From assembly GCF_003018255.1 (NCBI RefSeq), contig NZ_CP027440.1: a DNA stretch of 64,000 bases; one strand, 5' to 3'. This stretch comes from Escherichia coli. Lineage in GTDB: Bacteria; Pseudomonadota; Gammaproteobacteria; Enterobacterales; Enterobacteriaceae. The position numbers were made by a program, and so were the translations under genes. Below the pieces are notes generated by a model that did not search any database, was not told the DNA's origin, and was given only the letters and a program-made list of their open reading frames with translations. Below are positions 1,195 through 11,570 of the stretch, one piece after another (position 1 is the stretch's first letter; each line of letters opens with the position of its first letter).

Positions 1195-3822
1195 TTATTC
1201 TTCTTCTGGCTCGTCGTCAACGTCCACTTCCGGAGCGATTTCATCGTCCCCTTCCGCGGCACTGCCGTCGATGGTATCCAGATCTTCCTCGTCAACCGGT
1301 TCAGCAACACGTTGCAGACCCACTACGTTTTCATCTTCCGCAGTACGGATGAGGATCACGCCCTGGGTGTTACGGCCCACGATGCTGATTTCCGAAACGC
1401 GAGTACGTACCAGCGTACCGGCATCGGTGATCATCATGATCTGGTCGCAGTCATCTACCTGCACCGCGCCAACCACTAAACCGTTACGTTCGGTAACCTT
1501 GATGGAGATAACCCCTTTCGTCGCACGCGACTTAGTCGGGTATTCCGCCACTGCGGTACGTTTACCATAACCGTTCTGCGTTGCGGTGAGGATTGCGCCA
1601 TCGCCACGAGGCACGATCAGAGAGACGACTTTATCGCCTTCGCCTAAACGAATACCGCGAACACCGGTGGTGTTGCAGCCCATCGCACGGACAGAAGACT
1701 CTTTAAAGCGCACCACTTTACCTTCGGCGGAGAACAGCATTACTTCGTCTTCGCCGCTGGTCAGGTCAACGCCGATCAGCTCATCGCCTTCAACCAGTTT
1801 GATCGCCACTTTACCGGCGGTACGCAGACGGTTGAACTCGGTGAGGACGGTTTTCTTCACAGTACCGTTAGCGGTCGCCATGAAGACTTTCACGCCTTCT
1901 TCAAACTCGGTCACCGGCAGGATCGCAGTGATACGTTCGTCCTGCTCCAGCGGCAGCAGGTTGACGATCGGACGACCACGCGCGCCACGAGTGGCTTCTG
2001 GTAACTGGTAGACCTTCATCGAATAGACGCGGCCACGGCTGGAGAAGCACAGAATATGGTCGTGGGTGTTCGCCACCAGCAGTCGGTCAATAAAGTCTTC
2101 TTCTTTAATACGTGCGGCAGATTTGCCTTTCCCGCCACGACGCTGCGCTTCGTATTCAGAAAGCGGCTGATACTTCACGTAGCCCTGGTGAGAGAGTGTT
2201 ACCACCACATCTTCCTGGGTGATTAGATCTTCCAGGTTGATGTCAGCGCTGTTGGCAGTGATTTCAGTACGACGTTTGTCGCCGAACTGTTCACGAACCA
2301 GCTCCAGCTCTTCGCGGATCACTTCCATCAGACGATCGGCACTGCCAAGAATACGCAGCAGTTCTGCGATCTGATCCAGCAGCTCTTTGTATTCGTCGAG
2401 CAGTTTTTCATGCTCAAGGCCGGTCAGTTTCTGCAAACGCAGATCCAGAATCGCCTGAGCTTGCTGTTCGGTCAGGTAGTACAGACCATCACGCACGCCG
2501 AACTCTGGCTCCAGCCATTCCGGACGCGCAGCATCATCGCCCGCACGTTCGAGCATGGCGGCAACGTTGCCCAGCTGCCACGGATTAGCCACCAGCGCAG
2601 TTTTCGCTTCTGCAGGCGTCGGCGCATGACGGATCAGTTCGATGATCGGGTCGATGTTCGCCAGCGCTACGGCTAATGCTTCAAGGATATGAGCACGATC
2701 GCGAGCTTTACGCAGTTCGAAAATAGTACGACGAGTCACCACTTCGCGGCGGTGACGAACAAACGCCGCGATGATGTCTTTCAGGTTCATGATCTTCGGC
2801 TGACCATGGTGCAATGCCACCATGTTGATACCGAAAGAAACCTGCAACTGGGTCTGGGAGTAGAGGTTGTTGAGCACAACTTCACCGACCGCATCGCGTT
2901 TCACTTCAATCACGATGCGCATACCGTCTTTGTCAGACTCGTCACGCAGCGCGCTGATGCCTTCCACGCGTTTTTCTTTTACCAGTTCCGCAATCTTCTC
3001 GATCAGGCGCGCTTTGTTTACCTGATACGGAATTTCGTGGACGATAATGGTTTCACGTCCGGTTTTGGCGTCAACTTCCACTTCAGCACGGGCGCGGATA
3101 TATACCTTGCCGCGACCGGTACGGTAAGCTTCTTCAATACCGCGACGACCGTTAATGATTGCCGCCGTCGGGAAGTCCGGCCCGGGGATGTGTTCCATCA
3201 GCCCTTCAATGCTGATGTCTTCATCATCGATATACGCCAGACAACCGTTGATGACTTCCGTCAAGTTGTGCGGCGGGATGTTGGTTGCCATACCTACGGC
3301 GATACCGGAAGAACCGTTCACCAGCAGGTTAGGAATTTTGGTTGGCATGACGTCGGGAATTTTTTCCGTGCCGTCATAGTTATCTACGAAATCGACCGTC
3401 TCTTTTTCGAGATCGGCCATCAGTTCATGGGCAATTTTCGCCAGACGGATTTCCGTATAACGCATTGCCGCCGCAGAGTCGCCGTCGATGGAACCGAAGT
3501 TACCCTGACCGTCTACCAGCATGTAACGCAGCGAGAATGGCTGCGCCATACGGACGATCGTGTCATAAACCGCCGAGTCACCATGGGGATGGTATTTACC
3601 GATTACGTCACCAACGACACGGGCAGATTTTTTATAGGCTTTGTTCCAGTCATTGCCTAGTACGTTCATGGCGTAAAGTACGCGACGGTGTACCGGCTTC
3701 AGGCCATCTCGGACATCTGGCAGCGCACGGCCAACAATGACCGACATCGCATAATCCAGATAGGAGCTCTTCAGCTCTTCCTCAATGTTGACCGGTGTAA
3801 TTTCTCTCGCAAGGTCGCTCAT
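1195..3822 (-). CDS. gyrA: DNA gyrase subunit A
   Basis: 875-aa ORF starting [17 protein letters not shown], with the GyrA active-site and QRDR region (..[20 protein letters not shown]..) and the acidic C-terminal tail DEPEEE. Confidence 0.97.
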
Positions 3823-4831: not shown

Positions 4832-7800
4832 TTACCATTTCACCGTCATCGACAAAAACCCTGCCGTCTGGGCAAAATCATCACTCCCTTTCTGCCACGC
4901 CACGCTGCCGCGCAGGGACACTCGCTGACTGATATTGCCCGTGACTCCCACTTTTATTTCACCCCGTTGCTTCACCCCATCGTCACTGATAGTGCTGCCA
5001 TCTTCTTCAATTTCCGTCGCATGGGGATCGTGATAATAATTCAGATCTAATGTTGGTATGACATGAACAGCGGTACGCCATTCGCTGTGTAAACCCAGCC
5101 GCGTCTGAATATCATCACCCTGCGATTGTGACACGCGCGCATGGTTAGCGGCGGTAAAATCATCCTGCTGCACGCCCTGATAAATCACCTGCGCCTGCGG
5201 TTCAATCACCACACCACGCCCCGGTAACCATTGATACCCGGCTTCCAGCGAGGCGATAATCCCCGACGAGTGGTAATGATCCACGCCATCGTCTTGTTCA
5301 GAAACATCATTGTTAAACCACGCATATTGCAGCCAGCTATCCAGCCAGACCCCCTGCTTCTGATTACCGTGCTGATACCAGCTTGAGGTCAGCCCAACGG
5401 CATAACCGTGGTTCTGGTTATCGGCGCGAGTTCCGCTCATATTCGAGCGGCTGTCGCCCTGGTTATCGCTGTAGCCACCAACAATCCCAAGCATCCACTC
5501 GCCATCATCACCCCAGTGCCTGCTAAACAGATCGCCGCTAAGCTGCACCGTAGAAGTGTCTTCATGCTGAGCCAGTTGCCCTGCCGCCGTGTAATGATAA
5601 CGCCCGCCGATAACGCGTAAATTCAGCGTCTGACCATCGCCACCAGCGTGATCGCGTCGCTCCATCACAAATGCCTGATTTGCCGCACGTAGGTTATTAA
5701 AATATCCACCAACTTTGGCATTCAACACCGGCTGGTAAGCAGGCGTAGGTCCAGGGTCGGGGGTTGGGTCGGGATCCGGCGTGGGATCAGGATCTGGAGT
5801 CGGGTCCGGATCGGGCGGCGGCGTCGGAGTGACTTCTTGCGATCGCAGATACCAGTCATTGTTATCTTCCACCAGCGTATAGTCATACGCCCCCATATTG
5901 ACGTAGCCGCTTCCTGCCAGACGGAACTGCGCATTGTTTTGAAACTGCGTGGGATCAGCTGCGAAATCAACCACTTTAATACCTGTAGATGTCGGCTCAC
6001 CAATACCCGTAATGGGGTTAATTACCACGGCCGTGTTGCCAGCAGTATTACCGTTCAATACCAGTTGGTCACTTGCCGAGTCATCGCCGTTTAATTCGCT
6101 GTCGAGCAGTAGCGTACCGCCGCCGGTATAATCACCATTTACCGTCAGCGTGTCGCCAGCGACGCCATTTTGCAGGCTAATCGCACCGGACGTATTGGTC
6201 AGATTGCCATTAACCGTCACGTCGGAAAGATAAGTCAGGCTGTCAGTTTCAAGGTTGGTATTAAGCTCGCCTGTCAGCGTCACGCCATCGGTGGCATTCA
6301 CCAACGTACCGTCGCCGCTAAACAGCGAGGCATCCAGCACCTGGTTCGTATCCTGCTGCGTCAATCGCAACACAGTACCATCGGTTATGTCGATATCGCC
6401 GCCAGAGGTGGCATCGATTGAGCGAATATCCTGATTTTGCCCGGTTTCAAAAACACCGTCTTCCCCCACCCACAGTGAAGAAACATAAGGAATAATATTC
6501 TCCGCTTCACCTTTTAGCGTTCCGTCCTCCACACGTACCGCAGACGTCGCAGTGCCGCTGGCGGTCAACTCCAGCGTACCGCCGCCACTTTTAGTCAACG
6601 TGCTTACGCTATCCAGTTGTTGCCCGGTACTATCCGCCATCAACCCGCCCCATTGCGTATCTACGCCATCCTCAACGTGTATTTCGCCATCAGCGCGCAT
6701 TTCAATATTCCTGCCCTGACCTGTTGTAGCCGAGCGAGTGTCAACATCAGTCGTCACATCCATTTCACTGTGTTGTTGGGGATCTGTGAAGATCACTGAA
6801 CGGTTGTAACTTGTGTCCCCCAATTGCGAATTATCGCTGACTTCAAGCGTACCGGAGGCGATTTGCGTATTACCGAGATAACCGTTGTTATTCGCCAGCG
6901 TTACGCGCTGATCCCCCGCATTAATGACGACATAAACGCCATTCTGGCTGGCATCACTGCCGCCAATATGTAAATCATCGCCACTGCTGATATCAACGAC
7001 ATCATTACTGCCAATCACTGTCCCCCCGCTGCCGCTGATTTGCAGACCGTCATTGTATGAGCTATCGCCATCCCAGGTGGTGAAATCAGAGAGATCCAAT
7101 ACTCCGCCATTTAGCACGATCGATTGCGGATCGCTCTGCATTGCCCGTAAATCGGCCTGATTCCCCGCTAGCGACAATACGGCGTTATCTTCCACCACAA
7201 TATCGCCGGTTAATGCCATCGACTGCGCCCCTGTCAGGAGATAGCTGCCATCTTGCGCTACCGTCAACTGTCCTTCACCCTGAATCGAGCCGGAAAAACC
7301 GCCCTGGTTTACGGTAACATTGCCGCCTGCGTCGATATTCAAAATGCCATTAGCAAAACCGGTTAATGAGTGCACAAACGTTTGTTGTGTATTGCCAACA
7401 TTCAGTTCTGCCTGATACTCAGAATGAACAGTGCTGCCGACCATCAGACCAAAGCAATCCTGCGGATCGCTCTGACAGTGCGTGTCGCCGACATTCATTA
7501 ACTCATCGCTGCGCCCCAACGTCACCTCGCCATTCTGGATACTTATCTCGCCGGTAAACGCATTATTGTCGGCATTGAGGACTAACTCTCCCGCTCCCTC
7601 TTTAACGATGACTCCCGTTCCGGCAAGAGAATCAATCGCGCCATCGTTGCTGGTATTGCCTATTACCAGCGTTTTATCGGCGGCAATGTTAAATTCAGCC
7701 ACACTATGACCGATATACATAAAGCCCCCCGCCGCTGCCGTCGCCGAATGGTCATATCCCGAGGCGCTGTTATTTTCATCAATCATCACACCATTGTTTT

Positions 7801-8596
7801 GGTCATAATTATCATCAACAGAAATATCAATAAGATACGGGGATGTGGTGCTGCTGGTATAAATTGCTCCGCCATAACCTTCTGCATAGTTATTGGTAAA
7901 GGAGGTATTATTAATTATCGTTTTTCCTGAAAGATGTGTGTTATCCGTACTATTATCCGTAACATCAATAGCGCCGCCATCCCCATCACTATAACTTGTT
8001 GATGTATATGCCTGGTTATTATTAAAAGCATCATCACTTAAATAGTCGTCATTATTGATGGTATAAATTGCACCGCCTTTGCCGTCATTAGCGATGTTAT
8101 TGTGAAATACGGCGTTAGTGACACGTAAATCGGCGGCACCGGTATCATTGGTACCGGCAGAATAGATTGCTCCGCCATAGCCTCCTGCAACATTACTGTC
8201 GAAAATAACATTCGCAAGATTTATCGTTGAGTTTTCTTTAGCAAAGATAGCCCCACCATTATTATATTCGCCACTAACCGAGTTATCAGCAAACAGGGTC
8301 ATCCCTGTTTCATTTTGTGGTGAAATCGTAAATTCAGCACTTTGCTGCAAAAATACTGCGCCACCGCTGGCATTATTGGCCATACCCGAAAAAATCAACC
8401 ATTGCCCATCCGCGATGCTCCAGTCCTGCATATTGCCCGAAAGGCTTTGCCTGCTGGCCTGACAGTTCGCTTTGATATCATATCCCTGGCATGAATCGAT
8501 GACCGCTGCGGCACCGTTACCAGAGAAAAGAGATGCAATCATTGACGGGAGTAAAGATAAATACTCCTTGCGTAGAAAGATAATCCGCATATTCAT
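4832..8596 (-). CDS. yfaL: AIDA-I-type autotransporter adhesin (passenger with beta-helix repeats, Pro-rich linker, C-terminal beta-barrel)
   Basis: 1254-aa ORF with an N-terminal signal peptide (true start may be the Met 2 codons in, at 8590), repetitive GGAIY / N-rich passenger, a TPDPDP linker and a C-terminal barrel domain ending ..FLSMTVKW. Confidence 0.9.
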   Translation of the reverse strand: MNMRIIFLRKEYLSLLPSMIASLFSGNGAAAVIDSCQGYDIKANCQASRQSLSGNMQDWSIADGQWLIFSGMANNASGGAVFLQQSAEFTISPQNETGMTLFADNSVSGEYNNGGAIFAKENSTINLANVIFDSNVAGGYGGAIYSAGTNDTGAADLRVTNAVFHNNIANDGKGGAIYTINNDDYLSDDAFNNNQAYTSTSYSDGDGGAIDVTDNSTDNTHLSGKTIINNTSFTNNYAEGYGGAIYTSSTTSPYLIDISVDDNYDQNNGVMIDENNSASGYDHSATAAAGGFMYIGHSVAEFNIAADKTLVIGNTSNDGAIDSLAGTGVIVKEGAGELVLNADNNAFTGEISIQNGEVTLGRSDELMNVGDTHCQSDPQDCFGLMVGSTVHSEYQAELNVGNTQQTFVHSLTGFANGILNIDAGGNVTVNQGGFSGSIQGEGQLTVAQDGSYLLTGAQSMALTGDIVVEDNAVLSLAGNQADLRAMQSDPQSIVLNGGVLDLSDFTTWDGDSSYNDGLQISGSGGTVIGSNDVVDISSGDDLHIGGSDASQNGVYVVINAGDQRVTLANNNGYLGNTQIASGTLEVSDNSQLGDTSYNRSVIFTDPQQHSEMDVTTDVDTRSATTGQGRNIEMRADGEIHVEDGVDTQWGGLMADSTGQQLDSVSTLTKSGGGTLELTASGTATSAVRVEDGTLKGEAENIIPYVSSLWVGEDGVFETGQNQDIRSIDATSGGDIDITDGTVLRLTQQDTNQVLDASLFSGDGTLVNATDGVTLTGELNTNLETDSLTYLSDVTVNGNLTNTSGAISLQNGVAGDTLTVNGDYTGGGTLLLDSELNGDDSASDQLVLNGNTAGNTAVVINPITGIGEPTSTGIKVVDFAADPTQFQNNAQFRLAGSGYVNMGAYDYTLVEDNNDWYLRSQEVTPTPPPDPDPTPDPDPTPDPDPTPDPGPTPAYQPVLNAKVGGYFNNLRAANQAFVMERRDHAGGDGQTLNLRVIGGRYHYTAAGQLAQHEDTSTVQLSGDLFSRHWGDDGEWMLGIVGGYSDNQGDSRSNMSGTRADNQNHGYAVGLTSSWYQHGNQKQGVWLDSWLQYAWFNNDVSEQDDGVDHYHSSGIIASLEAGYQWLPGRGVVIEPQAQVIYQGVQQDDFTAANHARVSQSQGDDIQTRLGLHSEWRTAVHVIPTLDLNYYHDPHATEIEEDGSTISDDGVKQRGEIKVGVTGNISQRVSLRGSVAWQKGSDDFAQTAGFLSMTVKW
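5745..5830 (-). repeat. in-frame Pro/Asp/Thr tandem repeat (PTPPPDPDPTPDPDPTPDPDPTPDPGPTP) inside yfaL
   Basis: Near-perfect 18-nt periodicity on the coding strand; linker between the passenger and translocator domains. Confidence 0.7.
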
Positions 8597-9123
8597 CTAA
8601 CCATCATTTTCTATAAGATGGCGTATTTAATCGCATTATGCGATATAGGGTATTTTTCTTTTGTAAATTCTGCCCCTGATGTAATAACTATTTTGTTATT
8701 ATCTGATAATTAATTTAGATGCATCACAATTCAAATTAATAACTTTAAGGTAAATCGGTTATATTTAAACTAAATTAAAGCAATAAATAATATTCTTATA
8801 ATAAATACAAAAGTAACAAATTGGCTTAGTATTTAACAATAACCGCATAGAAAACAACCATTTCGACATCAACAATCGCTTACATTCGCTTATATATTGA
8901 CCACAACTGATACATCAGATTATGTGATGACTCGTGCTTAGATCAATTTTTGCAATCATTAGCAAAAAGATTAATAAACCATCTATATCAATTTATCCAA
9001 CCTATTCTGCCGTTCAAGAAATCACCGAACAGTTATTTTTAACAAATTTTTCTCTTCCCATTGACTTTCCCGGACACCTTGTCTGACCTAAGGTGCGCGA
9101 AAGCCACTTTTTCCTTCCTGAGT

Positions 9124-9208
9124 TATCCACAAAGTTATGCACTTGCAAGAGGGCCATTTTCACACTATCTTGCAGTGAATCCCAAACATACCCCCTATAT
9201 ATAGTGTT
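9124..9208 (+). promoter_or_regulatory. nrdAB promoter region with a DnaA box (TTATCCACA, 9124-9132) and two NrdR-box-like palindromes (9161-9177, 9193-9208)
   Basis: Exact DnaA-box nonamer; CACACTATCTTGCAGTG and CCCTATATATAGTGTT resemble the NrdR box consensus; located about 80-160 bp upstream of the nrdA ATG. Confidence 0.5.
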
Positions 9209-9284
9209 CTAAGCAGCTTCCCTCACTACAGGTAGTCTGCATGAAACTATTGCGGAAAGAATTCCAAAAACAGGTACGACATAC

Positions 9285-11570
9285 ATGAATCAGAATCTGC
9301 TGGTGACAAAGCGCGACGGTAGCACAGAGCGCATCAATCTCGACAAAATCCATCGCGTTCTGGATTGGGCGGCAGAAGGACTGCATAACGTTTCGATTTC
9401 CCAGGTCGAACTGCGCTCCCACATTCAGTTTTATGACGGTATCAAGACCTCTGACATCCACGAAACCATTATCAAGGCTGCCGCAGACCTGATCTCCCGT
9501 GATGCGCCGGATTATCAGTATCTCGCCGCGCGCCTGGCGATCTTCCACCTGCGTAAAAAAGCCTACGGCCAGTTTGAGCCGCCTGCGCTGTACGACCACG
9601 TGGTGAAAATGGTCGAGATGGGCAAATACGATAATCATCTGCTGGAAGACTACACGGAAGAAGAGTTCAAGCAGATGGACACGTTTATCGATCACGACCG
9701 TGATATGACCTTCTCTTATGCTGCCGTTAAGCAGCTGGAAGGCAAATATCTGGTACAGAACCGCGTGACCGGCGAAATCTACGAAAGCGCCCAGTTCCTT
9801 TATATTCTGGTTGCCGCGTGCCTGTTCTCGAACTACCCGCGTGAAACGCGCCTGCAATACGTGAAGCGTTTTTACGACGCGGTTTCCACATTTAAAATTT
9901 CGCTGCCGACGCCAATCATGTCCGGCGTGCGTACCCCGACTCGTCAGTTCAGCTCCTGCGTACTGATCGAGTGCGGCGACAGCCTGGATTCCATCAACGC
10001 CACCTCCAGCGCGATTGTTAAATACGTTTCCCAGCGTGCCGGGATCGGCATCAACGCCGGGCGTATTCGTGCGTTGGGTAGCCCGATTCGCGGTGGCGAA
10101 GCATTCCACACCGGCTGTATTCCGTTTTACAAACATTTCCAGACAGCGGTGAAATCCTGCTCTCAGGGCGGTGTGCGCGGCGGTGCGGCAACACTGTTCT
10201 ACCCGATGTGGCATCTGGAAGTGGAAAGCCTGCTGGTGTTGAAAAACAACCGTGGGGTTGAAGGCAACCGCGTGCGTCATATGGACTACGGGGTACAAAT
10301 CAACAAACTGATGTATACCCGTCTGCTGAAAGGTGAAGATATCACCCTGTTCAGCCCGTCCGACGTACCGGGGCTGTACGACGCGTTCTTCGCCGATCAG
10401 GAAGAGTTTGAACGCCTGTACACCAAATATGAGAAAGACGACAGCATCCGCAAGCAGCGTGTGAAAGCCGTTGAGCTGTTCTCGCTGATGATGCAGGAAC
10501 GTGCGTCTACCGGTCGTATCTATATTCAGAACGTAGACCACTGCAACACCCACAGCCCGTTTGATCCGGCTATTGCACCAGTGCGCCAGTCTAACCTGTG
10601 CCTGGAAATCGCCCTACCGACCAAACCACTGAACGACGTCAACGACGAGAACGGTGAAATCGCGCTGTGTACGCTTTCTGCTTTCAACCTGGGCGCAATT
10701 AACAGCCTGGATGAACTGGAAGAGCTGGCAATTCTGGCGGTTCGCGCACTCGACGCACTGCTGGATTATCAGGATTACCCGATCCCGGCCGCTAAACGTG
10801 GAGCGATGGGGCGTCGTACGCTGGGTATTGGTGTGATCAACTTCGCTTACTACCTGGCGAAGCACGGTAAACGCTACTCCGACGGCAGCGCCAACAACCT
10901 GACGCATAAAACCTTCGAAGCCATTCAGTATTACCTGCTGAAAGCGTCTAATGAGCTGGCGAAAGAGCAAGGCGCGTGCCCGTGGTTTAACGAAACCACT
11001 TACGCGAAAGGGATCCTGCCGATCGATACCTATAAGAAAGATCTGGATGCCATCGCTAATGAGCCGCTGCATTACGACTGGGAAGCACTGCGTGAGTCAA
11101 TCAAAACGCACGGCCTGCGTAACTCCACGCTTTCTGCTCTGATGCCGTCAGAGACCTCTTCGCAGATCTCTAACGCCACTAACGGTATTGAACCGCCGCG
11201 TGGTTACGTCAGCATCAAAGCGTCGAAAGACGGTATTCTGCGCCAGGTGGTGCCGGACTACGAGCATCTGCACGACGCCTATGAACTGCTGTGGGAAATG
11301 CCGGGTAACGATGGCTATCTGCAACTGGTGGGTATCATGCAGAAATTTATCGATCAGTCGATCTCTGCTAACACCAACTACGATCCGTCACGCTTCCCGT
11401 CAGGAAAAGTGCCGATGCAGCAACTGCTGAAAGACCTGCTCACCGCCTACAAATTCGGGGTCAAAACGCTGTATTATCAGAACACCCGTGACGGTGCTGA
11501 AGACGCACAAGACGATCTGGTACCGTCAATCCAGGACGATGGCTGCGAAAGCGGCGCATGTAAGATCTGA
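9285..11570 (+). CDS. nrdA: ribonucleoside-diphosphate reductase 1 alpha subunit (class Ia)
   Basis: 761-aa ORF starting [26 protein letters not shown] (ATP-cone), catalytic Cys/Glu region, C-terminal CESGACKI. Confidence 0.97.

Follow-up and report, generated by a model that had tools for sequence, protein, structure and literature searches.

Known DnaA and NrdR sites in the Escherichia coli nrdAB promoter and leader, and the conservation of NrdR box 0 across the Enterobacterales

The interval 9120-9284 of the window (the whole stretch of 64,000 nucleotides of E. coli DNA analysed here) is the nrdAB promoter together with its 5' leader. The motifs recorded there in a first-pass annotation belong to a textbook regulatory region that is already known, and the interpretation that accompanied them is partly supported. 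In the reading that we favour, with a probability of roughly 0.85, a sigma-70 promoter and its leader are run by two nucleotide-sensing regulators: DnaA, acting at a double box (9123-9143), and NrdR, acting at two boxes in the leader (boxes 1 and 2), with a further NrdR-like box (box 0) adding little or nothing in vitro. The sequences, spacings, criteria and conservation behind this reading were computed, protein binding and regulatory direction are taken from published papers, and the transcription start and mode of repression are inferred.

The nrdAB locus and core promoter

The window comes from the E. coli chromosome and has the gene order gyrA-ubiG-yfaL-ypaB-nrdA-nrdB-yfaE, as determined from the ORF list, megablast and the RefSeq annotation of the identical locus. 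The first-pass annotation had called the region the nrdAB promoter, an assignment upheld by its position immediately upstream of nrdA. The features discussed below are as follows.

4832-8596, minus strand: yfaL, a 1254-aa ORF
9123-9131, plus strand: DnaA box 1, TTATCCACA (pattern search; 9/9 consensus match)
9135-9143, plus strand: DnaA box 2, TTATGCACT (8/9 match; direct repeat 3 bp past DnaA box 1)
9143-9148, plus strand: putative -35 hexamer TTGCAA (read from the sequence; 17 bp from TATCTT)
9160-9175, no strand assigned: NrdR box 0, TCACACTATCTTGCAG (C4, A8, T9, T11 and G13 present; position 6, at 9165, is C; 5/6 conserved positions)
9166-9171, plus strand: putative -10 hexamer TATCTT, inside NrdR box 0 (read from the sequence)
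9175-9284, plus strand: nrdAB 5' leader of approximately 107-110 nt, holding NrdR boxes 1 and 2 (from the inferred start to the nrdA ATG at 9285)
9192-9207, no strand assigned: NrdR box 1, CCCCTATATATAGTGT (6/6 conserved positions; the essential box)
9223-9238, no strand assigned: NrdR box 2, TCACTACAGGTAGTCT (C4, A6, T11 and G13 present; centre AG; 5/6 conserved positions)
9285-11570, plus strand: nrdA coding sequence, class Ia ribonucleotide reductase (RNR) alpha subunit (ORF list; RefSeq annotation of the identical locus)

The segment 8597-9400 is 100% identical to three E. coli chromosomes (megablast) and is found in 5425 of 5426 complete E. coli genomes. Over 9115-9290, the window and K-12 are identical at 173 of 176 bases; the three SNPs lie at 9154, in the promoter spacer (C in the window, T in K-12), and at 9223-9224. 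The nrdAp promoter of K-12, reportedly the subject of work by Tuggle & Fuchs, Augustin et al., Olliver et al. and Torrents et al. (2007), and also covered by Rozman Grinberg et al. (2025), is like the window in gene order, DnaA double box, -35 and -10 hexamers, and NrdR boxes 0, 1 and 2. An Rfam scan of 8597-9400 gave no family match for the nrdAB leader. A sub-threshold match to IS605-orfB-I in the same interval was taken as chance (E = 0.44; 16.8 bits, where the gathering score is 94).

The nrdA promoter was not called by a sigma-70 scanner in either the window or Citrobacter, because its hexamers match consensus at just 8 of 12 positions; the -35 and -10 assignments thus rest on spacing, conservation and the literature. 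TTGCAA is assigned as the -35 hexamer by inference from these three sources, and the transcription start is estimated to lie at about 9175-9178. Published work places both the -10 hexamer and the transcription start within box 0 (PMC12176259; 2026 preprint).

In its distal part, the intergenic region between yfaL and nrdA is both strongly AT-rich (GC content 23.5-30% from 8600 to 9000) and unusually variable. Identity of at least 99% over 8597-9400 is seen in only 4 of 5658 records, most being 90-95% identical; over the proximal 176 bp, every matching record except one reaches at least 95%. The variable AT-rich region 8597-9000 is probably the Fis/H-NS/AT-rich upstream region of the literature. 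Two short blocks, AAGAAATCA...CGA(A/T)CA and ATTGAC(A) (9016-9040 and 9060-9065), are kept across both of the promoter architectures described below in an alignment of 80 sequences; these may be the published positive cis-acting sites or the cell-cycle inverted repeat. An inverted-repeat search yielded nothing that convincingly matched the '45-bp inverted repeat' which the literature places upstream of the DnaA boxes.

The DnaA double box

The first-pass annotation had listed a single canonical DnaA box at 9124-9132. The motif itself is genuine (TTATCCACA), although it lies one base upstream, at 9123-9131, and 9124-9132 reads TATCCACAA. As a binding site the single box is one half of a larger unit, the second half of which (9135-9143) had been overlooked: the complete DnaA site, TTATCCACA-aag-TTATGCACT, is a double box spanning 9123-9143, with two 9-mers (scored against the consensus TTATNCACA) on the same strand and separated by a 3-bp gap (AAG), within the published range of 2-3 bp. 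The last base of DnaA box 2 is the first base of the putative -35 hexamer. DnaA box 1 is unchanged in eight sampled E. coli alleles, E. albertii and Pseudocitrobacter.

The ChIP-seq study of Stringer, Fitzgerald & Wade (2024) found that DnaA generally requires two boxes 2-3 bp apart, and mutation of either nrdA box disrupted DnaA binding (PMC11317965). The 23-mer gTTATCCACAaagTTATGCACTt at 9122-9144 of the window is letter-for-letter the same as the double box listed for the nrdA ChIP-seq peak in that study (PMC11317965). The nrdAB site should be recorded in annotations as a double box. Double boxes at polA, purH, mioC, dnaA, DARS and oriC are built in the same way, from two same-strand 9-mers 2-3 bp apart of which one is a consensus box and both are required (PMC11317965); unlike at those loci, the weaker box at nrdAB is promoter-proximal and touches the -35 hexamer. 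The reported effect of DnaA on nrdAB transcription is both activating and repressing, depending on the level of DnaA-ATP: the published mechanism involves two high-affinity boxes and one DnaA-ATP-specific site, with activation by low DnaA and repression by high DnaA-ATP (PMC8203912).

In the favoured reading, a DnaA dimer on 9123-9143, abutting the -35 hexamer, would modulate recruitment of RNA polymerase. Following the literature, DnaA-ADP or a low level of DnaA-ATP on the high-affinity boxes would aid the polymerase, and a high level of DnaA-ATP would spread to the weaker ATP-specific site and cause repression. Control of this kind would tie dNTP synthesis to replication initiation.

A 42-56 bp stretch resembling the nrdA double DnaA box together with TTGCAA (94-95% identity) is also present in approximately 217 E. 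coli plasmid records and in phage P1. Window positions 9120-9161 correspond to 3001-3042 of one locus of this kind and to 463-518 of another, which is phage P1 (NC_005856, 86399-86454). This nrdA-like stretch adjoins hot (theta subunit) and upfN/upfO, and the P1 record itself annotates it as similar to an E. coli region with two predicted DnaA boxes. The annotated 47-aa ORF ypaB (9014-9157, minus strand; without annotation in the B2-like strain Z247) overlaps the nrdA promoter, and its first residues (MALLQVHNFVDNS) come from reading the DnaA boxes and the -35 hexamer on the reverse strand; the same peptide is found in a P1-like plasmid ORF (MAPLQVHNFVDNS). Since the start of ypaB is an antisense reading of these sites, its apparent conservation as a protein may merely mirror conserved DNA sites.

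The NrdR boxes

An NrdR operator, according to published criteria, has two 16-bp boxes 15-16 bp (or 26-27 bp) apart. The working criteria of the 2026 preprint, which require two boxes, treat C4 and G13 as indispensable and A6 and T11 as important, although the E. coli protein accepts T6, and call for at least 63% A/T between C4 and G13. The first-pass annotation had noted two NrdR-like strings approximately 32 bp apart from centre to centre, and both sets of coordinates are exact: CACACTATCTTGCAGTG lies at 9161-9177 and CCCTATATATAGTGTT at 9193-9208. In the published 16-bp register these are box 0 and box 1, with a 16-bp linker and 32 bp from centre to centre. Box 1 passes every published criterion (A/T between C4 and G13, 8/8). 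Box 0 and box 1 together have the expected spacing (15-16 bp) and the C4 and G13 bases, and box 0 fails solely at position 6, where it has C and A or T is required. A third box, box 2, had been omitted even though it lies inside the annotated interval 9120-9284; it is separated from box 1 by a 15-bp linker (9208-9222) and passes the published criteria, with an A/T content (5/8, 62.5%) right at the lower limit.

The classical annotation, which goes back to Rodionov & Gelfand (2005) and Torrents (2007), pairs box 0 with box 1. Rozman Grinberg et al. (2025), who renamed the upstream box 'box 0', found by microscale thermophoresis (MST) that a probe carrying boxes 0 and 1 was bound by E. coli NrdR with a KD above 6000 nM (PMC12176259). 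Box 1 with the new downstream box 2 (K-12 sequence GTACTACAGGTAGTCT, 15-bp linker) gave a KD of 113 nM (PMC12176259); these values are for K-12 probes, and box 2 of the window differs from K-12 at the non-critical positions 1-2 (TC in place of GT). In the EMSA of Torrents (2007) on a 185-bp fragment, as reported in PMC12176259, mutation of box 1 abolished NrdR binding and mutation of box 0 was without effect. The failure of box 0 has been put down to C at position 6: a C6A change raised affinity approximately 10-fold, and an A6C change lowered it more than 20-fold (2026 preprint). In Salmonella, mutation of either the upstream box or box 1 raised nrdAB-lacZ expression, with only the box 1 mutant equalling an nrdR deletion; the authors cautioned that the upstream-box mutation adjoins the -10 hexamer and may have altered the promoter itself (PMC2892513). 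Of the NrdR pair in the first-pass annotation, box 1 holds and box 0 is discounted by the in vitro data, yet box 0 is conserved in 78 of 78 promoters (discussed below).

The operators of E. coli nrdHIEF and nrdDG resemble nrdAB boxes 1 and 2, each having two 16-bp boxes with C4, A6, T11 and G13 and a 15-bp linker, and their affinities are similar (138 and 160 nM vs. 113 nM for nrdAB boxes 1 and 2; PMC12176259). Unlike these operators, nrdAB has three boxes, and its high-affinity pair is located downstream of the transcription start and not over the RNA polymerase site. More than two boxes at a class I RNR promoter are also found at Listeria monocytogenes nrdAB, which has four, in pairs of different affinity. 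The Listeria boxes form two separate pairs that both bind, whereas those of E. coli nrdAB are three consecutive boxes with a shared middle one.

In the favoured reading, an NrdR tetramer would occupy the high-affinity pair formed by box 1 (9192-9207) and box 2 (9223-9238) in the early leader. As these boxes lie at roughly +15 to +64 and are transcribed early, the step repressed would be promoter escape or early elongation. Box 0 (9160-9175), which lies over the -10 hexamer, would be an attenuated box, its weakness explained by C at position 6.

Motif counts in the window were also compared with those in shuffled sequences. The perfect DnaA box TTATCCACA occurs once in the 64-kb window (plus strand), which is not above chance (0.42 expected per shuffled window, with at least one in 33 of 100 shuffles), and neither TTATCCACA nor TTATNCACA is enriched over shuffles. 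Using a crude six-position NrdR score, 514 boxes of at least 5/6 are found in the window, and pairs spaced by 15-16 bp number 4, compared to 5.7 in shuffles; the strict NrdR core CNANATNTNG occurs 9 times where 16.9 are expected. The 4 spaced pairs are two pairs read on both strands, both at the nrdAB promoter, with none elsewhere in the window. Given this lack of enrichment, motif counts were dropped as evidence. That the motifs are chance matches without a regulatory role would fit these consensus-level counts, but we give the idea virtually no credence: they sit at an RNR promoter, they are conserved across the order, and binding to identical sequences has been published by ChIP-seq, EMSA and MST, which refutes it (PMC12176259; PMC11317965). 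The DnaA and NrdR sites at nrdAB are real, as judged by their location directly upstream of nrdA, their order-wide conservation and the published binding data.

Conservation of the sites and the role of box 0

Within E. coli, eight sampled alleles of 9115-9290 differ at 9154, 9157, 9211, 9223-9224, 9242 and 9246 and by a 13-bp leader deletion (9253-9265), and nowhere else. The DnaA boxes, promoter hexamers and critical NrdR-box positions are untouched by these polymorphisms. Box 2 is invariant at positions 3-16 in the eight alleles; at positions 1-2 the window has TC and K-12 has GT (GTAC at positions 1-4), and a TT allele also exists. In the 33-bp stretch around box 2, the TC allele is carried by 1533 of 5426 genomes and the GT allele by 3389. 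TC is probably ancestral, since it is common to E. albertii, Pseudocitrobacter and these 1533 E. coli genomes. The 13-bp deletion (CGGAAAGAATTCC), which is downstream of all NrdR boxes, is present in approximately 980 of 5426 genomes, such as that of Z247.

For a wider comparison, nrdA loci were taken from 80 species-representative Enterobacterales genomes, and the region from -300 to +6 of 78 of these was aligned with the window and K-12. Of the 80 sequences, 78 keep box 1 at all six conserved positions. In box 0, C4, T11 and G13 are invariant (78/78 promoters) and A8 and T9 occur in 79/80 aligned sequences. Among the 78 promoters, the base at position 6 is C (69), T (8) or G (1), and never A. 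The linker between boxes 0 and 1 is 16 bp in 75 of 77 scored promoters (15 bp in the other 2), and the block from box 0 to box 1 is free of indels in the alignment, while the 16-bp linker sequence itself varies freely. Only 6 of the 78 promoters, mostly of the Escherichia lineage, have a box 2 that passes the published criteria, namely those of E. coli (two sequences), E. albertii, a Pseudocitrobacter MAG, Rouxiella and one Pantoea. In approximately 60 of 78 promoters, box 1 has no other partner box passing the same criteria, leaving box 0, with C at position 6, as its sole candidate. That box 0 is universal with a fixed spacing and box 2 is rare is the opposite of what would be expected if boxes 1 and 2 were the only functional pair. 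From the alignment, box 0 looks selected, and the distribution of box 2 suggests that the E. coli solution of boxes 1 and 2 is lineage-specific.

Two promoter architectures can be distinguished. Type A (31 sequences) includes Escherichia, Pseudocitrobacter, Yersinia, Serratia, Rahnella, Hafnia, Edwardsiella, Dickeya, Brenneria, Budvicia and Xenorhabdus, and is characterized by an upstream DnaA box, the sequence CACTTGCAA (almost invariant in the 31 promoters), and TATCTT inside box 0. Type B (46 sequences) includes Citrobacter, Enterobacter, Raoultella, Kluyvera, Kosakonia, Pantoea, Erwinia and one Pectobacterium, and probably Salmonella; it is without the upstream DnaA box and has a conserved TA[GAC]AAT (the likely -10 hexamer) immediately 5' of box 0. 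In 40 of 46 type B sequences, a double DnaA box with a 3-bp gap lies directly 3' of NrdR box 1 (predicted at +16/+28 relative to box 1), with an inverted box approximately 30 bp further. Type B promoters share NrdR boxes 0 and 1, the 16-bp linker and DnaA boxes with E. coli, but unlike E. coli they have a qualifying NrdR box downstream of box 1 in only 1 of 46 taxa. A box 0 and 1 probe for Salmonella or Klebsiella would read as follows.

Salmonella/Klebsiella box 0+1: ACTCACCATATAGCGT-16 bp-CCCCTACATATAGTAT

In most type A genera the DnaA boxes are 13 bp apart; within this type, the 3-bp double box is found only in Escherichia and Pseudocitrobacter. A 10-bp indel separates the two spacings, the longer having one helical turn more, and the promoter-proximal DnaA box is fixed at -57 from NrdR box 1 throughout type A. 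The types are patchily distributed: two genera, Escherichia and Pseudocitrobacter, have type A promoters in the otherwise type B Enterobacteriaceae, and Pectobacterium zantedeschiae is type B among type A Pectobacteriaceae, suggesting promoter replacement by recombination. In type B leaders, an inverted pair, TTATCCACAG...CTGTGGATAA, at +16 to +56 from box 1 could form an mRNA hairpin of approximately 10 bp.

The conservation of box 0 can be accounted for in more than one way. Tentatively, and at less than even odds, we propose that box 0 is a maintained, deliberately weakened NrdR box (with the position-6 pyrimidine fixed) that is the ancestral partner of box 1 throughout the Enterobacterales, and that box 2 is a recent addition of the Escherichia lineage at a position that is taken by a double DnaA box in most Enterobacteriaceae and Erwiniaceae.

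Box 0 may instead have been conserved for reasons other than NrdR, as part of the core promoter and transcription start or as a low-affinity DnaA-ATP site, with its likeness to an NrdR box residual or coincidental; this is a realistic possibility, albeit one that we would not bet on. In E. coli the box lies over the -10 hexamer and the transcription start, in type B it directly adjoins TAGAAT, the likely -10 hexamer, it shows no binding in vitro (PMC12176259), and the complete absence of A at position 6 is odd for a site selected by NrdR. However, the conserved positions are exactly those of the NrdR signature (C4, A8, T9, T11 and G13), and the single C6A change is enough to restore approximately 10-fold affinity (2026 preprint). 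The probable -10 hexamers of types A and B, assigned from consensus, are approximately 12 bp apart relative to box 0, and the distance from box 0 to box 1 stays fixed at three helical turns despite this apparent shift. The constancy of both the box 0 sequence and its distance to box 1 argues against conservation merely as a -10 element.

The classical model, in which NrdR on boxes 0 and 1 (32 bp apart) occludes the -10 region, we consider unlikely, even when its weaker form is included, namely that box 0 serves in vivo as a third, low-affinity box beside boxes 1 and 2. It draws on the same conservation: the box 0 signature in 78/78 promoters, the indel-free block in spite of a variable linker, the approximately 60 of 78 promoters without another qualifying partner box, and the retention of box 0 in two architectures with different -10 positions. 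The Salmonella reporter data (PMC2892513) also favour it, and Listeria nrdAB is a precedent for more than two boxes. Opposed to it are the KD above 6000 nM for the box 0 and 1 probe and the lack of an EMSA effect when box 0 is mutated in the 185-bp fragment (both PMC12176259), the presence at position 6 of C, the base that lowers affinity more than 20-fold in the A6C change (2026 preprint), and the chance that the Salmonella mutation changed the promoter itself (PMC2892513).

The nrdAB operon provides dNTPs for replication, and its promoter joins the state of the replication initiator (DnaA-ATP/ADP) with the dATP/ATP balance (NrdR). The NrdR box pair commonly copied for E. coli nrdAB is outdated; as box 0 is universal but box 2 lineage-specific, the 2025 reassignment may in turn not hold beyond Escherichia. 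If box 1 was ancestrally paired with box 0, E. coli would be unrepresentative as a model, repression of nrdAB by NrdR in most of its relatives would rely on a pair that is 'non-binding' in short-probe assays, and a three-box complex in E. coli might connect the -10 region with the leader. As NrdR is discussed as an antibacterial target, it would be useful to know which boxes matter in Salmonella, Klebsiella and Yersinia.
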